DNA from: a virus
Lineage: Duplodnaviria > Heunggongvirae > Uroviricota > Caudoviricetes
DNA length: 27,569 nt
Virus record (IMG/VR): IMGVR_UViG_2582581022_000016
Direction: 5' to 3' (one strand)
Shown here: one piece after another, positions 1 through 17,963 of the stretch
How the letters are laid out: every line of letters begins with the position of its first letter
Numbering within the stretch: the first letter of the stretch is position 1
Translations under genes and position numbers: made by a program
Notes under the pieces: model-generated
What the model was told of the DNA's origin: nothing
Seen by the model: only the letters and a program-made list of their open reading frames with translations
Databases searched by the model: none

Positions 1-87
1 TGGGTAGTCATGTGGGATGGCTGGTTCAGACTTCAGGATATGGTTGAGGGTTACCTGGTGATGAAGTCTCTTGATCAGGAGATCTGA
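1..87 (+). CDS. 3' end of an upstream ORF entering the window (C-terminal 28 codons, stop TGA 85..87); product unknown
   Basis: Frame 1 is open from base 1 to TGA at 85..87; the next gene starts 16 bp downstream on the same strand. No family recognised. Confidence 0.3.
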   Translation, partial: WVVMWDGWFRLQDMVEGYLVMKSLDQEI

Positions 88-95
88 TCAAGAGA
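67..95. repeat. Near-perfect 29-bp palindrome (11-bp arms TCTCTTGATCA / TGATCAAGAGA, spacer GGAGATC) carrying three GATC sites
   Basis: Read directly; the arms are exact reverse complements. GATC at 73..76, 81..84 and 86..89. Overlaps the stop codon of the partial ORF. Confidence 0.6.
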
Positions 96-102
96 CAGGT
101 TT

Positions 103-1008
103 ATGCAGGGGCGTGTCCTGCTGGAGCCTGAGCCGGAACGTTATTCATCTTTCGCCAGTGGTGCCGTTCCGGCGGCATCACAACCGCTGGCGGATGATCC
201 TGCCGTTCGGGCCGTGTTCCGCAATGAGGCAGTTATTCGTCGTGCGGGTGGCGTGGAATGTCTTGAAAGCTGGTTACTTCGTGAAAAGGGCTGTCAGTGG
301 CCTCATTCCGACTGGCACAGCGAGAACATGACCACAATGCGACACGCTCCGGGCGCAATCCGTCTGTGCTGGCACTGCGATAACCAGCTGCGCGATCAGT
401 TCACGGAACGGCTGGAATCAATGGCAACGGATAACTGTGCCCGCTGGGTGTTGTCTGTTGTGCGTCGGGATCTCGGTTTTGATGACAGTCACGTTGTGAC
501 AATGCCGGAACTGTGCTGGTGGCTGATTCGTAATGACCTGGCGGATGCCTTACCGGAAAGTGCAGCCCGTAAGGCACTGAGATTACCAAAGCCTGTTGTG
601 CCGTCTGTCACCCGGGAAAGTGACCTTGTGCCTTCGGTTCCTGCCACCAGCATCATCCAGGATAAAGCGAAAAAGGTGCTGGCGCTGAAAGTGGATCCGG
701 AGTCGCCGGAGTCTTTTATGTTACGCCCAAAACGTCGCCGCTGGGTTAATGAAAAGTACACGCGCTGGGTTAAGACACAGCCGTGTGCATGTTGTGGAAA
801 GCCCGCTGATGATCCCCACCACCTGATAGGTCACGGTCAGGGTGGAATGGGAACAAAAGCGCATGACCTTTTTGTGTTGCCTTTGTGCAGAAAGCATCAC
901 GACGAGCTGCATGCGGATACCGTGGCATTTGAAGAGAAGTATGGCTCCCAGCTGGAGCTGATATTTCGTTTTATCGATCGTGCGCTGGCAATTGGCGTAT
1001 TGGCGTAA
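103..1008 (+). CDS. Phage DUF968-like protein with a C-terminal Cys/His-rich motif (CACCGKPADDPHHLIGHGQGG...PLCRKHHDELH)
   Basis: 301-aa ORF. The C-terminal motif resembles the conserved region of prophage DUF968 proteins as I recall them. Sits directly upstream of a Q-like gene, as ydfU does next to quuQ in the E. coli Qin prophage. Family assignment is from memory, not a search. Confidence 0.5.
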   Translation: MQGRVLLEPEPERYSSFASGAVPAASQPLADDPAVRAVFRNEAVIRRAGGVECLESWLLREKGCQWPHSDWHSENMTTMRHAPGAIRLCWHCDNQLRDQFTERLESMATDNCARWVLSVVRRDLGFDDSHVVTMPELCWWLIRNDLADALPESAARKALRLPKPVVPSVTRESDLVPSVPATSIIQDKAKKVLALKVDPESPESFMLRPKRRRWVNEKYTRWVKTQPCACCGKPADDPHHLIGHGQGGMGTKAHDLFVLPLCRKHHDELHADTVAFEEKYGSQLELIFRFIDRALAIGVLA

Positions 1009-1021
1009 GTGGAGAACGAGC

Positions 1022-1774
1022 ATGAACCTTGAAGCCTTACCAAAATATTACTCCCCAAAATCTCCAAAATTGAGCGATGACGCACCGGCGACAGGCTCAG
1101 GTGGTTTAACGATTACGGATGTGATGGCTGCGCAGGGGATGGTGCAGTCGAAAGCACCGCTTGGGTTTGCCTTATTCCTGGCAAAAGTTGGTGTTCAGGA
1201 TCCTCAGTTTGCGATTGAAGGTCTGCTCAATTACGCGATGGCACTGGATAACCCGACATTGAACAAATTGAGTGAAGAAACCCGGTTACAGATCATCCCT
1301 TACCTTGTGAATTTTGCCTTTGCTGATTATTCCAGGTCTGCGGCAAGTAAGGCTCGCTGTGAGCATTGTGCTGGTACTGGATTTCATAATGTATTGCGCG
1401 AAGTAGTGAAACACTCCAGAAGCGGTGAATCTGTTATCAAGGAGGAGTGGGTGAAGGAACTATGTCAGCATTGTCATGGTAAGGGAGAAGTCAGCACAGC
1501 GTGCAGAGGGTGTAAGGGGAAAGGTATTGTCCTGGATGAAAAAAGGACCCGGCTTCATGGCACGCCTGTTTATAAGATTTGTGGGCGTTGCAATGGAAAC
1601 CGGTTTAGCCGTTTACCAACCACACTGGCGCGGCATCATGTCCAGAAGCTGGTACCGGATCTGACGGATTATCAGTGGTACAAAGGATATGCAGATGTCA
1701 TTGATAAACTGGTTACAAAGTGCTGGCAGGAAGAAGAATATGCAGAGACACAATTGAGAAAAGTGACAAGATAA
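1022..1774 (+). CDS. Putative late-gene antiterminator (Q-like) with four DnaJ-type CxxCxGxG zinc-finger repeats
   Basis: ORF track starts at GTG 980; ATG 1022 with GGAG at 1011..1014 is the more likely start, giving 250 aa. Repeats CEHCAGTG, CQHCHGKG, CRGCKGKG, CGRCNGNR. Position immediately before a promoter/terminator pair and the lysis cassette fits a Q-type regulator. Confidence 0.5.
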   Translation: MNLEALPKYYSPKSPKLSDDAPATGSGGLTITDVMAAQGMVQSKAPLGFALFLAKVGVQDPQFAIEGLLNYAMALDNPTLNKLSEETRLQIIPYLVNFAFADYSRSAASKARCEHCAGTGFHNVLREVVKHSRSGESVIKEEWVKELCQHCHGKGEVSTACRGCKGKGIVLDEKRTRLHGTPVYKICGRCNGNRFSRLPTTLARHHVQKLVPDLTDYQWYKGYADVIDKLVTKCWQEEEYAETQLRKVTR

Positions 1775-1805
1775 ATGATTTTCGCCGAAGATGGCGACAT
1801 GATGC

Positions 1806-1834
1806 TTGCATTTTTCAAAAAATCTGGTTAGGAT
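1806..1834 (+). promoter_or_regulatory. Candidate late promoter (PR'-like): -35 TTGCAT (1806..1811), 17-bp spacer, -10 TAGGAT (1829..1834)
   Basis: Hexamers and spacing read from sequence. Lies between the Q-like gene and a downstream intrinsic terminator, the arrangement seen for lambda PR'/qut/tR'. Confidence 0.35.
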
Positions 1835-1884
1835 TCTCCTAACGATGGGCTTTGTATGTCTGCCGTTAACGAAATCATAACAAA

Positions 1885-1910
1885 CCTCGCTTCGGCGGGG
1901 TTTTTGCTTT
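1885..1910 (+). terminator. Intrinsic terminator (stem CCTCGC / GCGGGG with one G-U pair, TTCG loop, then TTTTTGCTTTT); tR'-like
   Basis: Hairpin plus T-tract read directly. About 50-70 nt downstream of the candidate promoter, so it would define a short leader RNA unless antiterminated. Confidence 0.5.
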
Positions 1911-1924
1911 TCTGGAGGTCAATA

Positions 1925-2182
1925 ATGCAGGGCGAAAAGCAGCAGCCATATTTTTTTAACCCTGGTATGACTGTTGAACAGCTTGAAGACTGGCTGGAGC
2001 AGCAAAAGCTTCATCTAAGCCGCTATAACCGTCTGGTAAAAGAAAAAGCAGAGCTTGAAGAACGGCTCAGTGATATTTCTGTGGAAATTGAACGAATGTC
2101 TGCTGGTAGTTTTAACGGAAAGTTGAGTTTCCCCTGGGAGTCAAGTTCGCTTCTGAGAAATCATCAACAGGGTAGTATTTGA
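1925..2182 (+). CDS. Hypothetical small protein (85 aa) with predicted coiled-coil character
   Basis: ORF track gives 1856..2182, but that start overlaps the terminator. ATG 1925 follows GGAGG (1914..1918) with 6-nt spacing. No family recognised. Confidence 0.4.
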   Translation: MQGEKQQPYFFNPGMTVEQLEDWLEQQKLHLSRYNRLVKEKAELEERLSDISVEIERMSAGSFNGKLSFPWESSSLLRNHQQGSI

Positions 2183-2261
2183 CTGAAATAATAAACAGAC
2201 TGTCATTAAGATCCCTTCCCCTCATATCTGAGAGGACCAACAGCAATTAAGAGGGGGCTAA

Positions 2262-2648
2262 ATGTCCGATCCGATTTCCGGTACTGGGCTGGCTGGTGGT
2301 GCCCTGACGGGTGCCAGTGTTTATGGACTGCTGACCGGAACTGATTACGGCGTTGTATTTGGCGCATTTGCAGGGGCTGTATTCTACATAGCAACAGCAG
2401 CAGATCTGAGTGCATCGCGCCGACTGGCATATTTTATCGTGTCATATATTGCCGGGATTCTTTGCTCTGGGTTGGTTGGCTCCAAGCTGGCGAACTTGAC
2501 CGGATACAGTGATAAACCTCTGGATGCTATTGGTGCCGTAATCGTCTCTGCTTTAGCCGTTAAAATCCTGACGTTCCTGAATCATCAGGATATCGGCTCG
2601 CTGGTGGCGCTCATAACGCGCCGGGGAGGTTCAGGTGGAGCTAAATGA
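2262..2648 (+). CDS. Putative holin / lysis membrane protein (128 aa, 3-4 predicted TM helices, Gly/Ala-rich)
   Basis: Hydrophobic segments GLAGGALTGASVYGLL, VVFGAFAGAVFYIATA, LAYFIVSYIAGILCSGLVG, AIGAVIVSALAVKIL. First gene of a cassette ending in endolysin and spanins. Confidence 0.55.
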   Translation: MSDPISGTGLAGGALTGASVYGLLTGTDYGVVFGAFAGAVFYIATAADLSASRRLAYFIVSYIAGILCSGLVGSKLANLTGYSDKPLDAIGAVIVSALAVKILTFLNHQDIGSLVALITRRGGSGGAK

Positions 2649-2916
2649 CCCGACAGCAACTATAAATGCGCTGTTATGTGCTTGTGTTGTTATTACTCTG
2701 ATGTTTTATCGTCGTGGTGATTCGCGGCATCGTCCTTGGGTTTCACGTTTAGCCTGGCTGATTACTGTTACATACAGTGCTGTTCCGTTGGCCTATCTCT
2801 GTGGGATTTATCCTCATTCCTCATGGCCCATTATCGTGGCGAACACTATTTTTCTTTCCGTGCTGGTGGCCGTCAGAGGCAACGTTGCACGTCTGGTTGA
2901 TCATCTGAGGCACTAA
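2635..2916 (+). CDS. Second holin-like small membrane protein (93 aa, about 3 TM helices); holin or antiholin partner
   Basis: GTG start 2635 preceded by GGGGAGG (2624..2630). Overlaps the stop of the upstream gene and the endolysin ATG (2916). Hydrophobic segments ALLCACVVITLMFY, LAWLITVTYSAVPLAYLCGIY, IIVANTIFLSVLVAV. Confidence 0.5.
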   Translation: MELNDPTATINALLCACVVITLMFYRRGDSRHRPWVSRLAWLITVTYSAVPLAYLCGIYPHSSWPIIVANTIFLSVLVAVRGNVARLVDHLRH

Positions 2917-3530
2917 TGAACCAACAATTATTTCAAAAGGCGGCTGGTATTAGCGCCGGGCTGGCTGCGCGCTGGTTTCCGCACATTGATGCGGCGATGA
3001 AGGAATTCGGCATTACAGCACCAGCGGATCAGGCAATGTTTATCGCTCAGGTAGGCCATGAGTCGATGGGGTTTAGCGCCGTAGTTGAAAATTTTAACTA
3101 CACACCATCTGCGCTGGTGGCGACGTTCGGAAAGAGGATCACACAGCAGCAGGCTGATGCCCTTGGCAGAACATCCGGACATGCAGCTCGTCAGGATGCT
3201 ATTGCCAATCTGGTGTATAGCAACCGGCTGGGTAACAAAGCACCCGGTGATGGCTGGAAATATCGCGGTAGAGGATTAATTCAAATCACTGGCCTCCATA
3301 ATTATCGCATCTGTGGCGCGGCGTTGAAGTTAGATCTGGTGACCTCACCTGAACAACTGGAGCAGGAGCTACAGGCCGCGCGCTCAGCTGCATGGTTCTA
3401 CGCATCTAAAGGCTGCATGGTCTACGGTGCCGATATTAATCGTGTTACGCGCATCATTAACGGCGGTCTGAACGGTATTGAGGATCGTAAGATTCGATAC
3501 AACAAGGCGCGGGCGGCGCTGCTGGTATGA
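2916..3530 (+). CDS. Endolysin, glycoside hydrolase family 19 (chitinase-like) type
   Basis: 204 aa. Motifs FIAQVGHESMGF, YRGRGLIQITG, INGGLNGIEDR match the GH19 catalytic region as I recall it. Lies between holins and spanins. Confidence 0.8.
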   Translation: MNQQLFQKAAGISAGLAARWFPHIDAAMKEFGITAPADQAMFIAQVGHESMGFSAVVENFNYTPSALVATFGKRITQQQADALGRTSGHAARQDAIANLVYSNRLGNKAPGDGWKYRGRGLIQITGLHNYRICGAALKLDLVTSPEQLEQELQAARSAAWFYASKGCMVYGADINRVTRIINGGLNGIEDRKIRYNKARAALLV

Positions 3531-3988
3531 AGATGAGTTATTGGGCGCTCATTTTAACGTTTATTGCTTGTATTGCTGGTGGTCTTGTCTGGTCAGCTAA
3601 TCATTACCACAATAAAGCCATTGAATACAAAAAACAGCGCGACGAAAACGCTATGGCATTAGATTCGGCTATGGCGACGATCTCTGATATGCAGAAGCGT
3701 CAACGTGACGTAGCAGAACTCGATGCCAGATATACAAAGGAGCTTGCTGATGCTAACGCGACTATCGAAAGTCTCCGTGCTGATGTTTCTGCTGGTCGTA
3801 AGCGCCTGCAAGTCGCCGCCACCTGTGCAAAGTCAACGACCGGAGCCAGCGGCATGGGCGATGGAGAAAGCCCAGGACTTACAGCAGATGCTGAACTCAA
3901 TTATTACCGTCTCCGAAGTGGAATCGACAGGATAACCGCGCAGGTTAACTACCTGCAGGAGTACATCAGGACTCAGTGCTTAAAATAA
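3527..3988 (+). CDS. Rz-like i-spanin (N-terminal TM helix plus coiled-coil periplasmic domain)
   Basis: 153 aa. N-terminal TM ALILTFIACIAGGLVW, then charged helical sequence. Start overlaps the endolysin stop (ATGA). Contains an embedded +1 frame lipoprotein ORF. Confidence 0.75.
   Translation: MKMSYWALILTFIACIAGGLVWSANHYHNKAIEYKKQRDENAMALDSAMATISDMQKRQRDVAELDARYTKELADANATIESLRADVSAGRKRLQVAATCAKSTTGASGMGDGESPGLTADAELNYYRLRSGIDRITAQVNYLQEYIRTQCLK
3750..3935 (+). CDS. Rz1-like o-spanin (proline-rich outer-membrane lipoprotein) embedded in the +1 frame of Rz
   Basis: ORF track gives 3723..3935; ATG 3750 follows AAGGAG (3739..3744). Signal peptide MLTRLSKVSVLMFLLVVSA, lipobox VSA-C, then KSPPPVQSQRPEP. 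Fully nested in the Rz gene as in lambda Rz/Rz1. Confidence 0.7.
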   Translation: MLTRLSKVSVLMFLLVVSACKSPPPVQSQRPEPAAWAMEKAQDLQQMLNSIITVSEVESTG

Positions 3989-4030
3989 TTTTAACTTCAC
4001 TGAAATTTAACAAGTGACTTTCAGGAAAAT

Positions 4031-4054
4031 GCCTCGCAGAAGCGGGGCTTTTTT
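4031..4054 (+). terminator. Intrinsic terminator after the lysis cassette (GCCTCGC-AGAA-GCGGGGC then TTTTTT)
   Basis: 7-bp stem with one G-U pair, tetraloop, 6-T tract; read directly. Confidence 0.55.
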
Positions 4055-4201
4055 ATGTCCTCAGTAAATGCGCTTCACACGCGCGACTTATGAACACAGA
4101 GCCTTTCAGGATGACCCTTGAGGATGCCGGTTTGGTTATCGGTGCCTTTCTGTGGGCCGGAATCCTGTGTGACAAGGTTCATCACTAAAAGGTAATTACC
4201 G

Positions 4202-4744
4202 ATGAATTATCCAACTATCGTTGACGGCATTGATTTCAAAGAACTGGTTTTTATTACCAACAATGACCCTGTCACCGATTCATTTATGGTGGCGAAAGCA
4301 TTTCGTAAGCGACATGACAACGTTGTGCGTGATGTAGAAAGAACTATCGCTGCTTGTCCTGAAGAGTTTGATACAAAACTCAATTTTGAGGTTTGCTATA
4401 AAAACAATGAGTTACAGAATGGTAAGCCACAAAAATTCTATCGGCTACGTAAGGATGGGTTGATGCTTTTGGTTATGTCCTACACCAAAAAAGAAGCAAT
4501 GCGTATCAAAATTGCTTACATCAACGCATTCAACTGGATGTACGCCATGCTTCAGGTTGGTAATCGTCAATTTGAAGAAGAGCGAAATGCCGTAATGCTG
4601 GAGTACATGAAAGAGAAGGATGTTGCCAGCATGTCAGGTCGCCTGCTAAATCGCTGGGGAAAAATTAAGAAGCCACAGCTGCTGGCTAGAATTGAACGCC
4701 TTGAACAGCACGGGCAAACCGTAATCCCCGGACTCACCAATTAA
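4202..4744 (+). CDS. Rha-family phage regulatory protein
   Basis: 180 aa. N-terminal VTDSFMVAKAFRKRHDNVVRDVER matches the conserved Rha N-terminal signature as I recall it. Confidence 0.7.
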   Translation: MNYPTIVDGIDFKELVFITNNDPVTDSFMVAKAFRKRHDNVVRDVERTIAACPEEFDTKLNFEVCYKNNELQNGKPQKFYRLRKDGLMLLVMSYTKKEAMRIKIAYINAFNWMYAMLQVGNRQFEEERNAVMLEYMKEKDVASMSGRLLNRWGKIKKPQLLARIERLEQHGQTVIPGLTN

Positions 4745-4924
4745 CGGCAGCACCGCGAAACAACCCAAGCCAGTAAGTGGGGAAATAACACTGGCAGCCA
4801 CTGAAAGATGAACCTCCAGCCTTATGGCAAAAAAGATTCTTTGTGGTGGCGGACTGATGGAAAGACATCGGTTATTGCAGAGGCCATTCAATGAGTGGTC
4901 TCGACAATGGCTTATACCCTGCAC

Positions 4925-4950
4925 GGGATAACTTAACTGATATCCCTTTT
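4925..4950 (+). terminator. Terminator-like hairpin (GGGATA / TATCCC, 10-nt loop, then TTTT)
   Basis: Read directly. Lies in the 286-bp non-coding gap between the Rha gene and the HNH gene. Confidence 0.35.
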
Positions 4951-5030
4951 AACGGATAAACGGAGCCAATAATGGCAGAGAATGTCGGCATTATGGCAGT
5001 GAAATTTGGATAAATCGGAGATTAGTACAT

Positions 5031-5381
5031 ATGCCGCCACGAATCCCAAAAGCCTGCCGTGTTCGCGGTTGCCGCCATACCACCACAGATCCGTCAGGCT
5101 ATTGTGAAAGCCACAAAAGCGAAGGCTGGAAGCAATACAAGCCAGGCCAGTCCCGGCACCAGCGCGGTTATGGTTCGAAATGGGATGTTATCCGTGAACG
5201 TGTGCTCAAGCGTGACAAAGGCCTGTGTCAGTTATGTCTGCGTGCCGGTGTGGTGCGTGAGGCGAAAACCGTTGACCACATCATCCCTAAAGCGCATGGC
5301 GGCACAGATGCCGACAGCAATCTGCAGAGCCTGTGCTGGCCGTGCCATAAGGCGAAGACGGCCCGTGAACGGCTAAAGTGA
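5031..5381 (+). CDS. HNH endonuclease (packaging-associated, adjacent to terminase)
   Basis: 116 aa. HNH-type His/Asn/His pattern (DHIIPKAHGG...N...LCWPCHKAK) plus N-terminal CxxC...C...H. Immediately upstream of the small terminase, as in HK97-like cos phages. Confidence 0.85.
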   Translation: MPPRIPKACRVRGCRHTTTDPSGYCESHKSEGWKQYKPGQSRHQRGYGSKWDVIRERVLKRDKGLCQLCLRAGVVREAKTVDHIIPKAHGGTDADSNLQSLCWPCHKAKTARERLK

Positions 5382-5407
5382 TAATAATTCTCAACTGTCT
5401 GAGGGGA

Positions 5408-5467
5408 GGGGCGGGTCAAATCCCTGTGACCTGACGTCTTCCGGACTGCCCGCCCCATCGTTTTTTT
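5408..5467. other. GC-rich inverted repeat (GGGGCGGG at 5408..5415, CCCGCCCC at 5449..5456) followed by TTTTTTT; candidate terminator and/or cos-region element
   Basis: 8-bp perfect GC arms with a 33-nt loop, then a T7 tract at 5461..5467. Located between the HNH and small-terminase genes. Confidence 0.35.
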
Positions 5468-5506
5468 ATACCCGCGAAAAATGAAATTTAACCAGGAGTG
5501 CCGCAT

Positions 5507-6001
5507 ATGGCTGGAACGGCGGGGCGTTCCGGGCGTCGCCCCAAGCCAACGGCGCGCAAGGCGCTGGCCGGAAACCCCGGCAAGCGAGCCCTGAACAAAG
5601 ATGAACCTGTTTTTACGCCCATCAAAGGCGTTGAGCCACCGGAGTGGTTCGCAGAAGAAGATCTCCCTCTCGCCACGATCATGTGGCAACTGACAACCAA
5701 AGAACTCTGCGGTCAGGGCCTGCTGTGCGTGACTGACCTCGCGGTGCTTGAGCGGTGGTGCGTGGCCTATGAGTTCTGGCGACGTGCCGTGAAAAATATT
5801 GCCAGACAGGGCAACACCATCACCGGTGCAATGGGCGGCAGGGTCAAAAATCCGGAGCTGACCGCCAAAAAAGAACAGGAGTCCGAGATGAGCAGCACGG
5901 GGGCAATGCTCGGACTCGACCCCGGCAGCCGCCAGCGTCTGATTGGCCTGGCGGGGCAGAAGAAAGCCACTAACCCGTTTCTGAAAATCATCGAGTCATG
6001 A
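5507..6001 (+). CDS. Terminase small subunit (P27-family-like)
   Basis: ORF track starts at GTG 5498; ATG 5507 follows AGGAG (5493..5497). Basic N-terminus ([22 protein letters not shown]), directly upstream of and overlapping the large terminase. Confidence 0.75.
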
Positions 6002-17362: not shown

Positions 17363-17392
17363 CATTCCTTACAAATGATTGAAGGGATGATT

Positions 17393-17887
17393 ATGCGTAT
17401 CTTTGTTTTTTTTATATCTGCACTTTTATCTTTTAACTTGGCTGCGGAAGAGTGTAAGTTCAGCTTTAATGAGTCAGAATTAATCTCTTCTATAGGTATT
17501 GCACCAGTTAAGCAAGAGATAATAAAGGATGAAGGAATAACTAAGCGGCAATATGAATTCAGAAGAGAATTATCTTCTGAAGAAATGCTTAGTGATGACG
17601 CTGATGAAAAATATGAGCCGCAGTTTTATATATCTGTTTATAATCCATCATGCCCACAAAAGGTTATTGTTTGGTTTTTCAAAGACAATAAAAACACAAT
17701 GGATTTAAGTAATGAGGTCCTTGCTGGTAGAGCGTTCAAGTATTTAACTGGTGTTAATGAAAGTATTTTTGAAAATAAAATGAAAAAGTTTTTAAAGGTA
17801 CAGTCATTTGAATCTTTTGATGAAAGGACAGATTCTAAATTTATAAAGAGTGGTGATATTTATTCCATTGATGTTCAACTCAGATAG
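17393..17887 (+). CDS. AT-rich cargo gene encoding a signal-peptide-bearing secreted/periplasmic protein of unknown function (about 164 aa)
   Basis: ORF track gives 17375..17887; ATG 17393 follows GAAGGGA (17381..17387). Predicted signal peptide MRIFVFFISALLSFNLA|AEE. Two Cys in the mature part. Base composition is visibly far more A/T-rich than flanking tail genes. No family recognised. Confidence 0.6.
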   Translation: MRIFVFFISALLSFNLAAEECKFSFNESELISSIGIAPVKQEIIKDEGITKRQYEFRRELSSEEMLSDDADEKYEPQFYISVYNPSCPQKVIVWFFKDNKNTMDLSNEVLAGRAFKYLTGVNESIFENKMKKFLKVQSFESFDERTDSKFIKSGDIYSIDVQLR

Positions 17888-17906: not shown

Positions 17907-17963
17907 CCCGCCACATCTTCTGCGATGTAAATAACTGACAAAGCAGATTTGGCGGGTTTTTTT
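17907..17963 (+). terminator. Terminator-like element after the cargo gene (CCCGCCA ... TGGCGGG then TTTTTTT)
   Basis: GC arms at 17907..17913 and 17950..17956 with a long loop containing a nested ACATC/GATGT hairpin, then a 7-T tract at 17957..17963. Confidence 0.4.

Follow-up and report, generated by a model that had tools for sequence, protein, structure and literature searches.

From 1925 to ~24.5 kb, all the genes of the stretch of DNA analysed here (27,569 nt, called the window below) lie on the + strand, and they cover lysis, terminase, portal, capsid, sheath, tape-measure and baseplate. A gene for a Q antiterminator stands ahead of this train, and between the two lies a gap, 1775-1924, in which the first-pass annotation had read a promoter, TTGCAT-17-TAGGAT, and a hairpin, CCTCGC-TTCG-GCGGGG, followed by a T-tract; both are where it had put them (1806-1834 and 1885-1913, respectively). 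What, then, does this gap do, and which of its letters carry the function? The features that bear on these questions are collected in Table 1.

Table 1. Features of the late-gene control region and of the late unit downstream of it
Feature	Position	Strand	Basis or description
Q antiterminator gene, 250 aa, Q-lambda family, enlarged zinc "arm"	1022..1774	+	Pfam, PHROG, lambda Q alignment
-35 hexamer TTGCAT of the predicted late promoter (PR' equivalent)	1806..1811	+	in register with lambda TTGACT; identity 0.97 in 55 distinct clade sequences
17-nt spacer TTTTCAAAAAATCTGGT	1812..1828	+	clade identity 0.88
Candidate Q-binding element TTCAAAAAATCTG	~1814-1826	+	suggested by spacer pattern and phi80 record
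-10 hexamer TAGGAT	1829..1834	+	in register with lambda TAAATT
6-nt segment TCTCCT, -10 to +1	1835..1840	+	lowest identity of the module, 0.63
Predicted +1 (1841) and sigma-dependent pause element AACGATGGG (-10-like AACGAT, discriminator-like GGG)	1841..1849	+	identical to lambda pR' +1..+9
Conserved initial transcribed region, +10..+27	1850..1867	+	identity 0.88; Q/promoter module ends at 1867
Intrinsic terminator (tR' equivalent): stem 1882-1890 / 1895-1903, UUCG loop, T-tract 1901-1913	1882..1913	+	fold, scan, relatives
Shine-Dalgarno GGAGG (1914-1918), then first late ORF, 85 aa, ATG 1925	1925-2182	+	phrog_3501 (function unknown), 2.6e-54
Lysis cassette: two holin-family genes, endolysin, Rz spanin	2262..3988	+	Pfam Phage_holin_8, Phage_holin_3_7, Glyco_hydro_19, Phage_lysis
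Canonical intrinsic terminator inside late unit, after lysis cassette	4031..4054	+	GCCTCGC-AGAA-GCGGGGC, six T
Weak hairpin/T element	4925-4950	+	-8.3 kcal/mol, 10-nt loop, only four T
cos region: inverted repeat GGGGCGGG 5408-5415 / CCCGCCCC 5449-5456; seven T 5461-5467	5408..5467	+	SfV/SfIV record ends
Terminator-like hairpin CCCGCCA...TGGCGGG and seven T (long-range GC stem)	17907..17963	+	-21.2 kcal/mol, z = -3.36

The identity of the Q gene is plain: its product matches PF03589 (Antiterm, 1.6e-53), matches phrog_127 (“anti-termination protein Q-like”) over its full length at 6e-109, is 35% identical to lambda Q from end to end, and finds the solved Q-lambda chains 7ubm and 4mo1. In the Pfam search, neither PF06530 nor PF06323 (the Q21-type and Q82-type Q proteins) was matched, PF03589 being the only family above threshold, with a sub-threshold DnaJ zinc-finger match beside it. 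Where the protein departs most visibly from lambda Q is its arm, which has an insertion of ~48 aa with two extra CxxC pairs (two-zinc). The lambda arm contacts DNA and sigma region 4 (PMC9388147), so an insertion of this kind, placed there, means that details of Q loading may differ from those of lambda.

The promoter is less easily recognised. Its hexamers are weak (TTGCAT agrees with the consensus at 3/6 positions and TAGGAT at 4/6, for a total of 7/12, which is under the threshold of the promoter scanner), and matches at least as good occur at 339 sites when both strands of the window are counted (~6 per kb per strand). The consensus match by itself is not beyond chance, and because comparably good ones are so common, the promoter call has to rest on homology. 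The composite of a -35, 16-18 nt, a -10, 5-7 nt and AACGATGGG is another matter: it occurs once in the window, at 1806, and this combination of promoter and pause motif, conserved in relatives, is the significant part. At the level of sequence, then, a sigma-70-type promoter does appear to occupy the gap after Q. Its register with known late promoters is ungapped, the window reading TTGCAT-17-TAGGAT-6-AACGATGGG and lambda TTGACT-17-TAAATT-6-AACGATGGG, with P22 Plate collinear; within the clade, the -10 hexamer varies (TAAGAT, TAAAAT, TAGTAT and TAGCAT are found), T1, A2 and T6 being kept in all.

In lambda pR', AACGAT occupies +1..+6 (PMC4005639) and together with GGG makes up the pause element, the pause falling at +16 (PMC4005639; PMC5001585). 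The 9-mer AACGATGGG matches that element from +1 to +9, and we therefore place the predicted +1 at 1841, in agreement with the collinear starts of lambda and P22 (the first A of AACGAT is marked in the P22 record as the 5' nucleotide of its late RNA) and with the start near 1841 that had been proposed. Does the pattern of substitution fit an element that is read by sigma? We anchored the hexamer statistics on the -35 and spacer only, so that A2 and T6 were not imposed, and found variation confined to +3/+4, with A2, A5, T6 and GGG nearly invariant, which is the pattern expected for recognition by sigma region 2. Farther on, TATG at 1855-1858 (+15..+18) fits the TNYG pause consensus (PMC9191641) with a predicted RNA 3' end at +17 (1857), and TATG or TGTG stands at +15..+18 in nearly all clade members. 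A pause near +16/+17 (1857) is thus what we would predict; Q-dependent escape is sensitive to +17..+36 (PMC4005639).

One part of the lambda anatomy is degenerate here. In lambda, a -35-like TTGACT, separated by 1 bp from the pause element that follows it, is the target of the repositioned sigma region 4 (PMC9388147), whereas the window has TTCTCC at the same place (1834-1839), agreeing with TTGACA at 3/6 positions.

The spacer, in turn, is conserved within the clade more than one would expect of a plain spacer. The 5' half of it differs by Q clade (the window has TTTTCAAA, lambda TATTGAAT, phi80 TTCGCGGA, SEN22 AAGTGGCG and YeP3 AAGTTGCC), and TGG/TTG at its 3' end is common to the clades compared. 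The phi80 record annotates a Q-binding site at the equivalent position, and the lambda element is one that we take to lie between -35 and -10; the exact 13-mer 1814-1826 is our predicted Q-binding element. That is, both members of the pair that had been suggested for a search near the -10, a pause site and a Q-binding site, now have positions, the second of them as a candidate.

The terminator needs no such help from relatives. The hairpin core (CCTCGC 1885-1890, TTCG 1891-1894, GCGGGG 1895-1900) is extended by AAA/TTT to 1882-1903 and followed on its 3' side by TTTTTGCTTTT (1901-1911); the 9-bp stem, with 5 G-C and 1 G-U pairs, its UUCG loop and the UUUUUGCUUUU that comes next make this an intrinsic terminator by the usual definition. 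It folds at -13.1 kcal/mol with z = -4.18 (0/200 shuffles were as good), it ranks second among + strand sites in a terminator scan of 1-6000, and it is beyond chance. Initiation at 1841 would yield a terminated leader of ~65-71 nt, into which the short RNA ending near 1906 that had been foreseen fits well. The SKA5 record annotates the first late ORF with the identical start (1925). We did consider ATG 1856 as the start of a leader peptide or of a longer first ORF, and rejected it: it is in frame with 1925 only in the window, has no Shine-Dalgarno, opens a 7-codon ORF in SfV, and is absent in the relatives L005 and L007. A search of the whole window against Rfam gave no family at gathering score, and the permissive matches within 1700-2000 (istR, Trp leader and others) are far below threshold and driven by the terminator.

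How these elements have fared in evolution can be read from 55 distinct clade sequences, which supply the conservation profile, and from 88 related loci surveyed for terminators. The -35 (0.97) and +1..+9 (0.99) are nearly fixed, the spacer and +10..+27 follow at 0.88 each, and beyond +27 identity among the 55 relatives falls to 0.52-0.57. Yet a canonical terminator is found in 85 of the 88 loci, with its T-tract ending at +54..+73 and in 23 different hairpin sequences, and degenerate terminators only in the other 3/88. A terminator kept so regularly in so many forms implies selection on function, not on sequence. The break at +27 recurs in both the phage and the E. coli collections: in megablast alignments, SfV, mEp460, 15 Stx2c phages and the majority of 730 E. 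coli genomes are homologous to the window up to 1867 and no farther. The 730 are those, out of 5426 complete E. coli genomes, with a match to some part of the query, for the most part its first 93 nt only, and 109 of them reach at least 80% query coverage, including the window terminator. E. coli AMSHJX01 is 100% identical over 1775-1924. In other words, relatives present us with a natural experiment in which the loading region is frozen, terminators are freely swapped, and the pause hexamer varies at two positions that sigma tolerates.

Lambda Q/PR'/qut/tR' is like the window in Q family (PF03589), in its 17/6-nt spacing, in an identical AACGATGGG, and in having the terminator before the lysis genes; its leader, the 6S RNA, is 194 nt, far longer than the ~65-71 nt predicted here. 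P22 gene 23/Plate/qut/tlate shares the Q family, the AACGAT start and a short leader (its record annotates Plate, qut, +1 and tlate, the last at +31..+59), although gp23 is the short, lambda-like form of Q and the P22 spacer is lambda-like, both unlike the window. The phi80 cassette, gene 17 (Q)/pR', has a long Q with the arm insertion (269 aa), a TTGCAT -35, pR' hexamers and spacer Q site annotated in the record, and a terminator ~50 nt downstream, as in the window; it differs in its pause element (AACGCTGGG), in its spacer (TTCGCGGAAAAACTGGA), and in a Q identity of ~37-40%. Closest of all are SfV, mEp460 and the Stx2c-converting phages, whose Q gene, promoter and +1..+27 DNA are 96-98% identical to the window. 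Past +27 they differ, with a terminator of the form ACCCGCC(G/A)CTGAGCGGGT against CCTCGCTTCGGCGGGG in the window, and their cargo differs as well (morons, methylase, and tRNA preceding the Stx2c cargo that record titles mention). Terminators are annotated at the matching place in the SfV (“putative rho-independent terminator” in GenBank), P22 and phi80 records; annotation of a promoter or pause element is absent from the records of SfV, mEp460 and the Stx2c phages.

The order found here, Q gene, promoter, pause element and terminator, is that of Q-lambda-type cassettes (PMC9388147). Cassettes of the Q21 and Q82 types share the logic, combining a sigma-dependent pause close to the promoter with a Q-binding element and a terminator, but their Q families (PF06530 and PF06323) are unrelated to the Q of the window, and for Q21 two protomers read a binding element built as a tandem direct repeat (PMC9388147).

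Taken together, these comparisons make 1775-1924 very probably the late-gene control cassette of an SfV-like lambdoid E. coli prophage, homologous to lambda PR'-qut-tR'. The assignment goes beyond consensus matching because it comes from homology to experimentally defined systems, and the lambda-like arrangement first proposed for this gap, a promoter and a short terminated leader after a Q-like gene, is borne out by the likeness to lambda PR' and P22 Plate. The arrangement is a textbook late switch, and this cassette leaves the textbook model unchanged; the start, the pause position, the extent of the Q-binding element and read-through by Q are predictions from sequence.

Could the hairpin and T-tract instead simply serve the early rightward operon, terminating the Q mRNA at its 3' end, with the promoter a chance match and the late genes reached by read-through from upstream? 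The terminator does lie 111 nt past the Q stop codon, where it would also stop unmodified polymerase arriving from upstream, and the weakness of the hexamers, with their 339 equals, also speaks for this reading. But no part of the gap is better conserved than -35 to +27, which agrees base for base with lambda and P22, pause element included, and a plain terminator leaves unexplained both an invariant AACGATGGG 45 nt upstream of it and variation confined to +3/+4; we regard this reading as very improbable. The two roles of the terminator, for the early operon and for the late leader, are compatible. Still harder to credit is that the palindrome GTTAGGA-ttc-TCCTAAC (1827-1843), a perfect 7-bp inverted repeat that overlaps the -10 hexamer and the start, serves as the operator of a dimeric repressor of the late promoter. 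SfV reads GGATAAGATTTTTCCAACG there, and the Stx2c phages and the relatives L004-L008 are without the symmetry and yet have the promoter and the pause element; we reject the operator, since the palindrome is not conserved and is a by-product of a TAGGAT -10 adjoining CCTAACGAT.

A different kind of addition would make the leader, besides its place in the switch, a trans-acting, Hfq-binding sRNA produced constitutively in lysogens. The precedent is StxS of Stx1/Stx2a phages, a terminated late-promoter leader made in lysogens, whose transcription runs from PR' to tR' and which regulates host genes (PMC7547250), and the predicted leader of the window has a layout typical of sRNAs: a stem-loop at the 5' end, then a single-stranded, A-rich linker (1868-1881), and last the terminator hairpin and its U tail. 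The resemblance is to sRNA layout in general; StxS itself is 258 nt and is processed to 74 nt. Against an sRNA also stand the poor conservation of its possible seed (+28..+45, 0.52), the free swapping of terminators among relatives, and the lack of an Rfam family at threshold, so that by analogy with StxS such a role is conceivable and, in our judgment, improbable.

We return to the late-switch cassette and to its abrupt end at +27. Once transcribed, the pause element (+1..+5) may base-pair with a segment at +19..+27 into a stem-loop at the very 5' end of the RNA, and the Q/PR' module may have its true 3' limit in this stem-loop, an idea that we hold tentatively and would not bet on. The comparison drew on 515 related loci. 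Pairing of +1..+5 with its partner is 100% as AACGA/UCGUU in lambda, P22 and SEN-A and as AAUGA/UCAUU in SEN-B; the other pairs are AAGAA/UUCUU (L192), AACAG/UUGUU (SEN22) and, in the Fels-1 group, AAUCA/UGAUU and GAUUAU/AUAAUU, and own partners set against swapped ones give a permutation p of ~6e-5. Counting against the pairing, the window clade has one-sided changes only, the L018 clade varies at +3/+4 without compensation, and stems predicted from single sequences are not above shuffles. Support is mixed. If the hairpin is real, the late mRNA and the short leader might gain stability from it, or it might assist in threading RNA through the Q nozzle.

With the late switch as the preferred reading, events would run as follows. 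Host sigma-70 RNA polymerase would start at 1841 from TTGCAT-17-TAGGAT, and sigma region 2 would re-bind the non-template-strand AACGAT (+1..+6, backed by GGG), the initial complex scrunching and pausing near +16/+17. Without Q, polymerase would escape and terminate at the UUCG hairpin and T-tract, releasing a leader that stops immediately short of the first late gene's ribosome-binding site. Q, made from the early operon, would bind the promoter-spacer site at ~1814-1826 and load onto the paused complex, and the modified polymerase would then pass the 1882-1913 terminator, the one at 4031, the cos-region hairpin and the 17907 moron terminator, yielding a single late transcript for lysis, packaging, head and tail genes. 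The Q/promoter module being 96-98% identical up to +27 in the records of SfV, mEp460 and 15 Stx2c phages, the mapped elements should hold for the control of Stx2c and moron cargo as well. What the window offers is thus a base-level anatomy, from +1, pause element and candidate Q site to the +27 boundary and terminator, for a widespread late switch.

The first-pass annotation had also listed four further hairpin/T-tract elements within the late gene train, in keeping with an antiterminated operon. All four are present, and they are of different kinds. The one at 4031-4054 is canonical (-15.4 kcal/mol, z = -4.57), and the one at 4925-4950 is weak and marginal. The third, 5408-5467, has to be relabelled, for it brackets the cos genome end 5439|5440 and is not primarily a terminator: the SfV record ends on the equivalent of 5439 and begins on that of 5440, where the SfIV record also begins, and the fold (z = -1.98) has a long-range GC stem with a gap of 4 nt before the T-tract. 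According to the SfIV paper, SfI, SfII, SfIV and SfV have one and the same cos site, and the linear map of SfIV places the small terminase gene first and cos last (PMC3851460). The fourth, at 17907-17963, keeps its terminator-like character under a more specific label. It closes a moron, 17375-17887, that is inserted between the tape-measure and baseplate-hub genes and is low in GC (0.28-0.33 between 17300 and 17900, where the window as a whole has 0.52), its neighbours being a phrog_8976 gene (function unknown) and then the baseplate hub.

The gap that separates the Q stop codon (TAA, 1772-1774) from the start codon after it (ATG, 1925) is an ordinary lambda-type late control region, as the first-pass annotation had correctly spotted, and it adds one more case to a known class of such regions. 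Both elements claimed for it, a TTGCAT-17-TAGGAT promoter and a TTCG-loop hairpin terminator, are found in the sequence where they had been placed. The terminator is a strong call on its own; the site at 1882-1913 ranks second among plus-strand sites in a terminator scan of 1-6000, and its fold (-13.1 kcal/mol, z = -4.18) was matched by none of 200 shuffles. The promoter, taken alone, is not a strong call: its hexamers score 7/12, below the threshold of the consensus scanner, and 339 sites in the window, both strands counted, score at least as well. Because such matches are common, the promoter half of the observation needs outside evidence.

Elements of the region after Q, and spacer 5' halves by Q clade. 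Identity is ungapped identity to the window over 55 distinct sequences of its own clade.
Feature	Position	Strand	Sequence	Identity
-35 hexamer	1806-1811	+	TTGCAT	0.97
Spacer, 17 nt	1812-1828	+	TTTTCAAAAAATCTGGT	0.88
-10 hexamer	1829-1834	+	TAGGAT	0.85
Six bases before +1				0.63
+1 to +9				0.99
+10 to +27				0.88
+28 to +45				0.52
+46 to +72				0.57
Hairpin	1885-1890, 1895-1900	+	CCTCGC, loop TTCG, GCGGGG	
Stem with three more A-T pairs	1882-1903	+	then TTTTTGCTTTT	
Shine-Dalgarno	1914-1918	+	GGAGG	
Spacer 5' half, window clade			T(T/A)TTCAAA	
Spacer 5' half, lambda/P22			TATTGAAT	
Spacer 5' half, phi80			TTCGCGGA	
Spacer 5' half, SEN22 group			AAGTGGCG	
Spacer 5' half, YeP3			AAGTTGCC	

Set ungapped against lambda, the window reads TTGCAT / TTTTCAAAAAATCTGGT / TAGGAT / TCTCCT / AACGATGGG and lambda reads TTGACT / TATTGAATAAAATTGGG / TAAATT / TGACTC / AACGATGGG, the last segment being the same in both. 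In lambda, +1 to +6 of pR' (AACGAT) form a -10-like pause-inducing element, followed by a "discriminator-like" GGG and a pause at +16 (PMC4005639; PMC5001585). The P22-pbi record marks Plate, a qut site, tlate and the 5'-terminal base of the late RNA; checked on the sequence, that base is the first A of AACGAT, and tlate lies at +31 to +59. In the phi80 record, pR' hexamers are annotated, along with a Q-binding site inside the spacer and, about 50 nt downstream, a terminator; the published cassette consists of a Q gene, PR', a sigma-dependent pause element, a terminator and late genes (PMC9388147). By homology, +1 would be 1841 and a leader of about 65-71 nt would end at about 1905-1911, in agreement with the start near 1841 and the short RNA ending near 1906 that had been proposed. 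A second exact copy of AACGATGGG lies in the cos region (5454-5462, minus strand; about 0.22 copies expected by composition, both strands); it is probably a coincidence, since no convincing promoter was found upstream of it. Two candidates were rejected by comparison with relatives, namely ATG at 1856 as a start codon (the start is not conserved) and a palindrome across the -10 and +1 (its symmetry is not conserved).

The gene before the gap (1022-1774, 250 aa) matches Pfam PF03589 (1.6e-53), phrog_127 over its full length, solved Q-lambda chains and, at 35% identity end to end, lambda Q; judged by these matches, it is a Q-lambda-family antiterminator. Relative to lambda Q, its zinc-ribbon arm carries an insertion of about 48 aa with two extra CxxC pairs (window 1355-1600, Q residues about 113-190; 8 Cys in total, with a sub-threshold DnaJ CXXCXGXG match). 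This long form is common to phi80, SEN22, Fels-1 and YeP3, and the short form occurs in lambda and P22. A DUF968/YdfU-family gene precedes Q; after the gap, the plus strand carries an 85-aa ORF (no assigned function), two holin-family genes, endolysin and Rz and then, further downstream and still all on that strand, Rha-like, HNH endonuclease, terminase, portal, capsid, sheath, tape-measure and baseplate genes. The window is an SfV/SfII/SKA5-like prophage. Just 5' of the holin gene (2262), a sigma-70-like TCAACA-17-AATAAT with an extended-10 TG (2164-2192) may have arisen by chance or may serve as a Q-independent promoter. A Mangrovibacter plantisponsor contig (L015) encodes a Q 67% identical to the window's; the promoter/pause module is absent after this gene, and in its place there is other sequence containing a hairpin that looks bidirectional. 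Rearrangement or decay of a prophage may account for this.

Relatives were drawn from one-genome-per-species contigs (17 loci, Q 39-98% identical), IMG/VR viral contigs (seven scans) and phage records. In megablast, the match to SfV, mEp460, 15 Stx2c-converting phages and others ends at 1867, or +27; of 5426 complete E. coli genomes, 730 align to part of the query, in most cases to just its first 93 nt, and at least 80% of it, including the window's terminator, is covered in only 109. A module boundary at +27 fits the Q-dependent pause escape described for lambda, which proceeds through a scrunched complex out to about +24 to +28 and depends on post-pause sequence (PMC4005639). The Q/PR' module is common to SfV, mEp460 and Stx2c phages and, in the window, is joined to a UUCG-loop terminator.

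For statistics on the pause hexamer, loci were anchored on the -35 and spacer only, independently of the hexamer itself. Variation (AATGAT, AACAAT, AAAGAT, AATAAT, AACTAT) is centered on +3 and +4 in the window clade (35 distinct) and in that of the related locus L018 (27 distinct), with A2, A5, T6 and GGG nearly invariant in both, as would be expected if sigma region 2 reads this element. Within the L018 clade, many E. coli prophage copies (L436-L515) are nearly identical and differ only at +3/+4 (AACGAT, AATGAT, AATAAT, AACAAT, AAAGAT, AACTAT); in effect, they are a naturally occurring mutational scan of the pause element. TATG or TGTG, conserved at +15 to +18, fits the pause consensus TNYG (PMC9191641) and would place the RNA 3' end of a predicted pause at +17. 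At Fels-1-type Q loci (L197-L276), a -10-like hexamer (AATCAT, GATTAT or AATCGT) and then GG stand only 3 nt past the apparent -10 (TATGCT), so start site or pause geometry must differ from lambda.

The spacer of the clade is far more conserved than a plain spacer would need; its 5' half differs with the Q clade, and its 3' TGG/TTG is common to all. The lambda QBE is a 13-bp asymmetric site read by a helix-turn-helix at positions 1-4 and by the zinc arm, which also contacts sigma region 4, at 11-13 (PMC9388147). We infer a candidate Q-binding element at 1814-1826, TTCAAAAAATCTG, consistent with the phi80 annotation. In lambda, the -35-like TTGACT is occupied by sigma region 4 in the loading complex, whereas the window has TTCTCC, the least conserved stretch of the module; this degenerate sequence and the enlarged Q arm could be where the mechanism departs from lambda's.

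Might the start of the leader also fold? The predicted fold pairs +1 to +4 with +24 to +27 and +6 to +10 with +18 to +22. Partner segments are AACGA/TCGTT in lambda, P22 and the SEN-A group and AATGA/TCATT in SEN-B, and ungapped comparison of the lambda/P22/SEN sequences gives 100% pairing (slid controls, 17-55%), with pair 3:21 being C-G in 12 and U-A in 9. Elsewhere they are AAGGA/TTCTT (YeP3), AAGAA/TTCTT (locus L192), AACAG/TTGTT (SEN22) and, in the Fels-1 group, AATCA/TGATT, GATTAT/ATAATT and TCGTG/CACGA; permutation of own against swapped partners across clades gives p ~6e-5. Taken one sequence at a time, the stems do not outperform shuffles (404 of 1000 match the window's), compensating changes were not found in the window clade, where all changes are one-sided, and none accompanies the +3/+4 variation in the L018 clade. 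Selection on this pairing is unproven, and we hold it to be a doubtful proposition.

What, then, is the terminator for? A canonical intrinsic terminator is present in 85 of 88 clade loci, though sequence past +27 is not conserved, and the other 3 have degenerate versions; core stems start at +32 to +50, T-tracts end at +54 to +73, and 23 different hairpin sequences occur. In GenBank, the SfV version is already labelled a putative rho-independent terminator. Were the hairpin purely the end of an early operon, the frozen block from -35 to +27 would be left unexplained, and we consider such a role very improbable. That the leader doubles as a trans-acting sRNA, for which StxS is a precedent (PMC7547250), is unlikely, given that the probable seed region is its least conserved part. 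The late-control mechanism as a whole is, in our judgment, highly probable.

Four further hairpin/T-tract elements had been named. The one at 4031-4054, which folds at -15.4 kcal/mol (z = -4.57), stands as a canonical terminator past the lysis cassette. At 4925-4950 the case is marginal, since the AT-rich stem has 6 bp, the loop 10 nt and the T-tract only four T. The hairpin at 5408-5467 is better explained as the cos region; its fold reaches z = -1.98 only, and a 4-nt gap lies between the stem and its seven T. In window coordinates, the SfV record has its last base at 5439 and its first at 5440, where the SfIV record also starts, and the inverted repeat GGGGCGGG/CCCGCCCC flanks this physical genome end (5439|5440). 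The cos is identical in SfI, SfII, SfIV and SfV, and the SfIV linear map runs from the small terminase gene to cos (PMC3851460). Between the tape-measure and baseplate-hub genes, an insertion at 17375-17887 (GC 0.28-0.33 against 0.52 for the window) holds one gene (phrog_8976, no assigned function) and resembles a moron carried within the tail operon; the terminator-like hairpin at 17907-17963 is read as the moron terminator because it closes this low-GC, single-gene insertion. Late transcription would have to pass through all of these hairpins and so needs a processive antiterminator, which bears out the general claim of a Q-antiterminated operon. Intra-operon terminators of unknown role have also been noted in P22-like phages (PMC8022706). 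Beginning 8 nt past the Q stop codon, there is also a small hairpin, TCGCC-GAAGAT-GGCGA (1782-1797); it is kept through G-U pairs in some relatives (such as locus L005) and broken in others (such as L004). At the equivalent place, the hairpin of lambda and P22 is TTGCCA-CGGA-TGGCAA, and the two versions differ by a T-A to C-G change.
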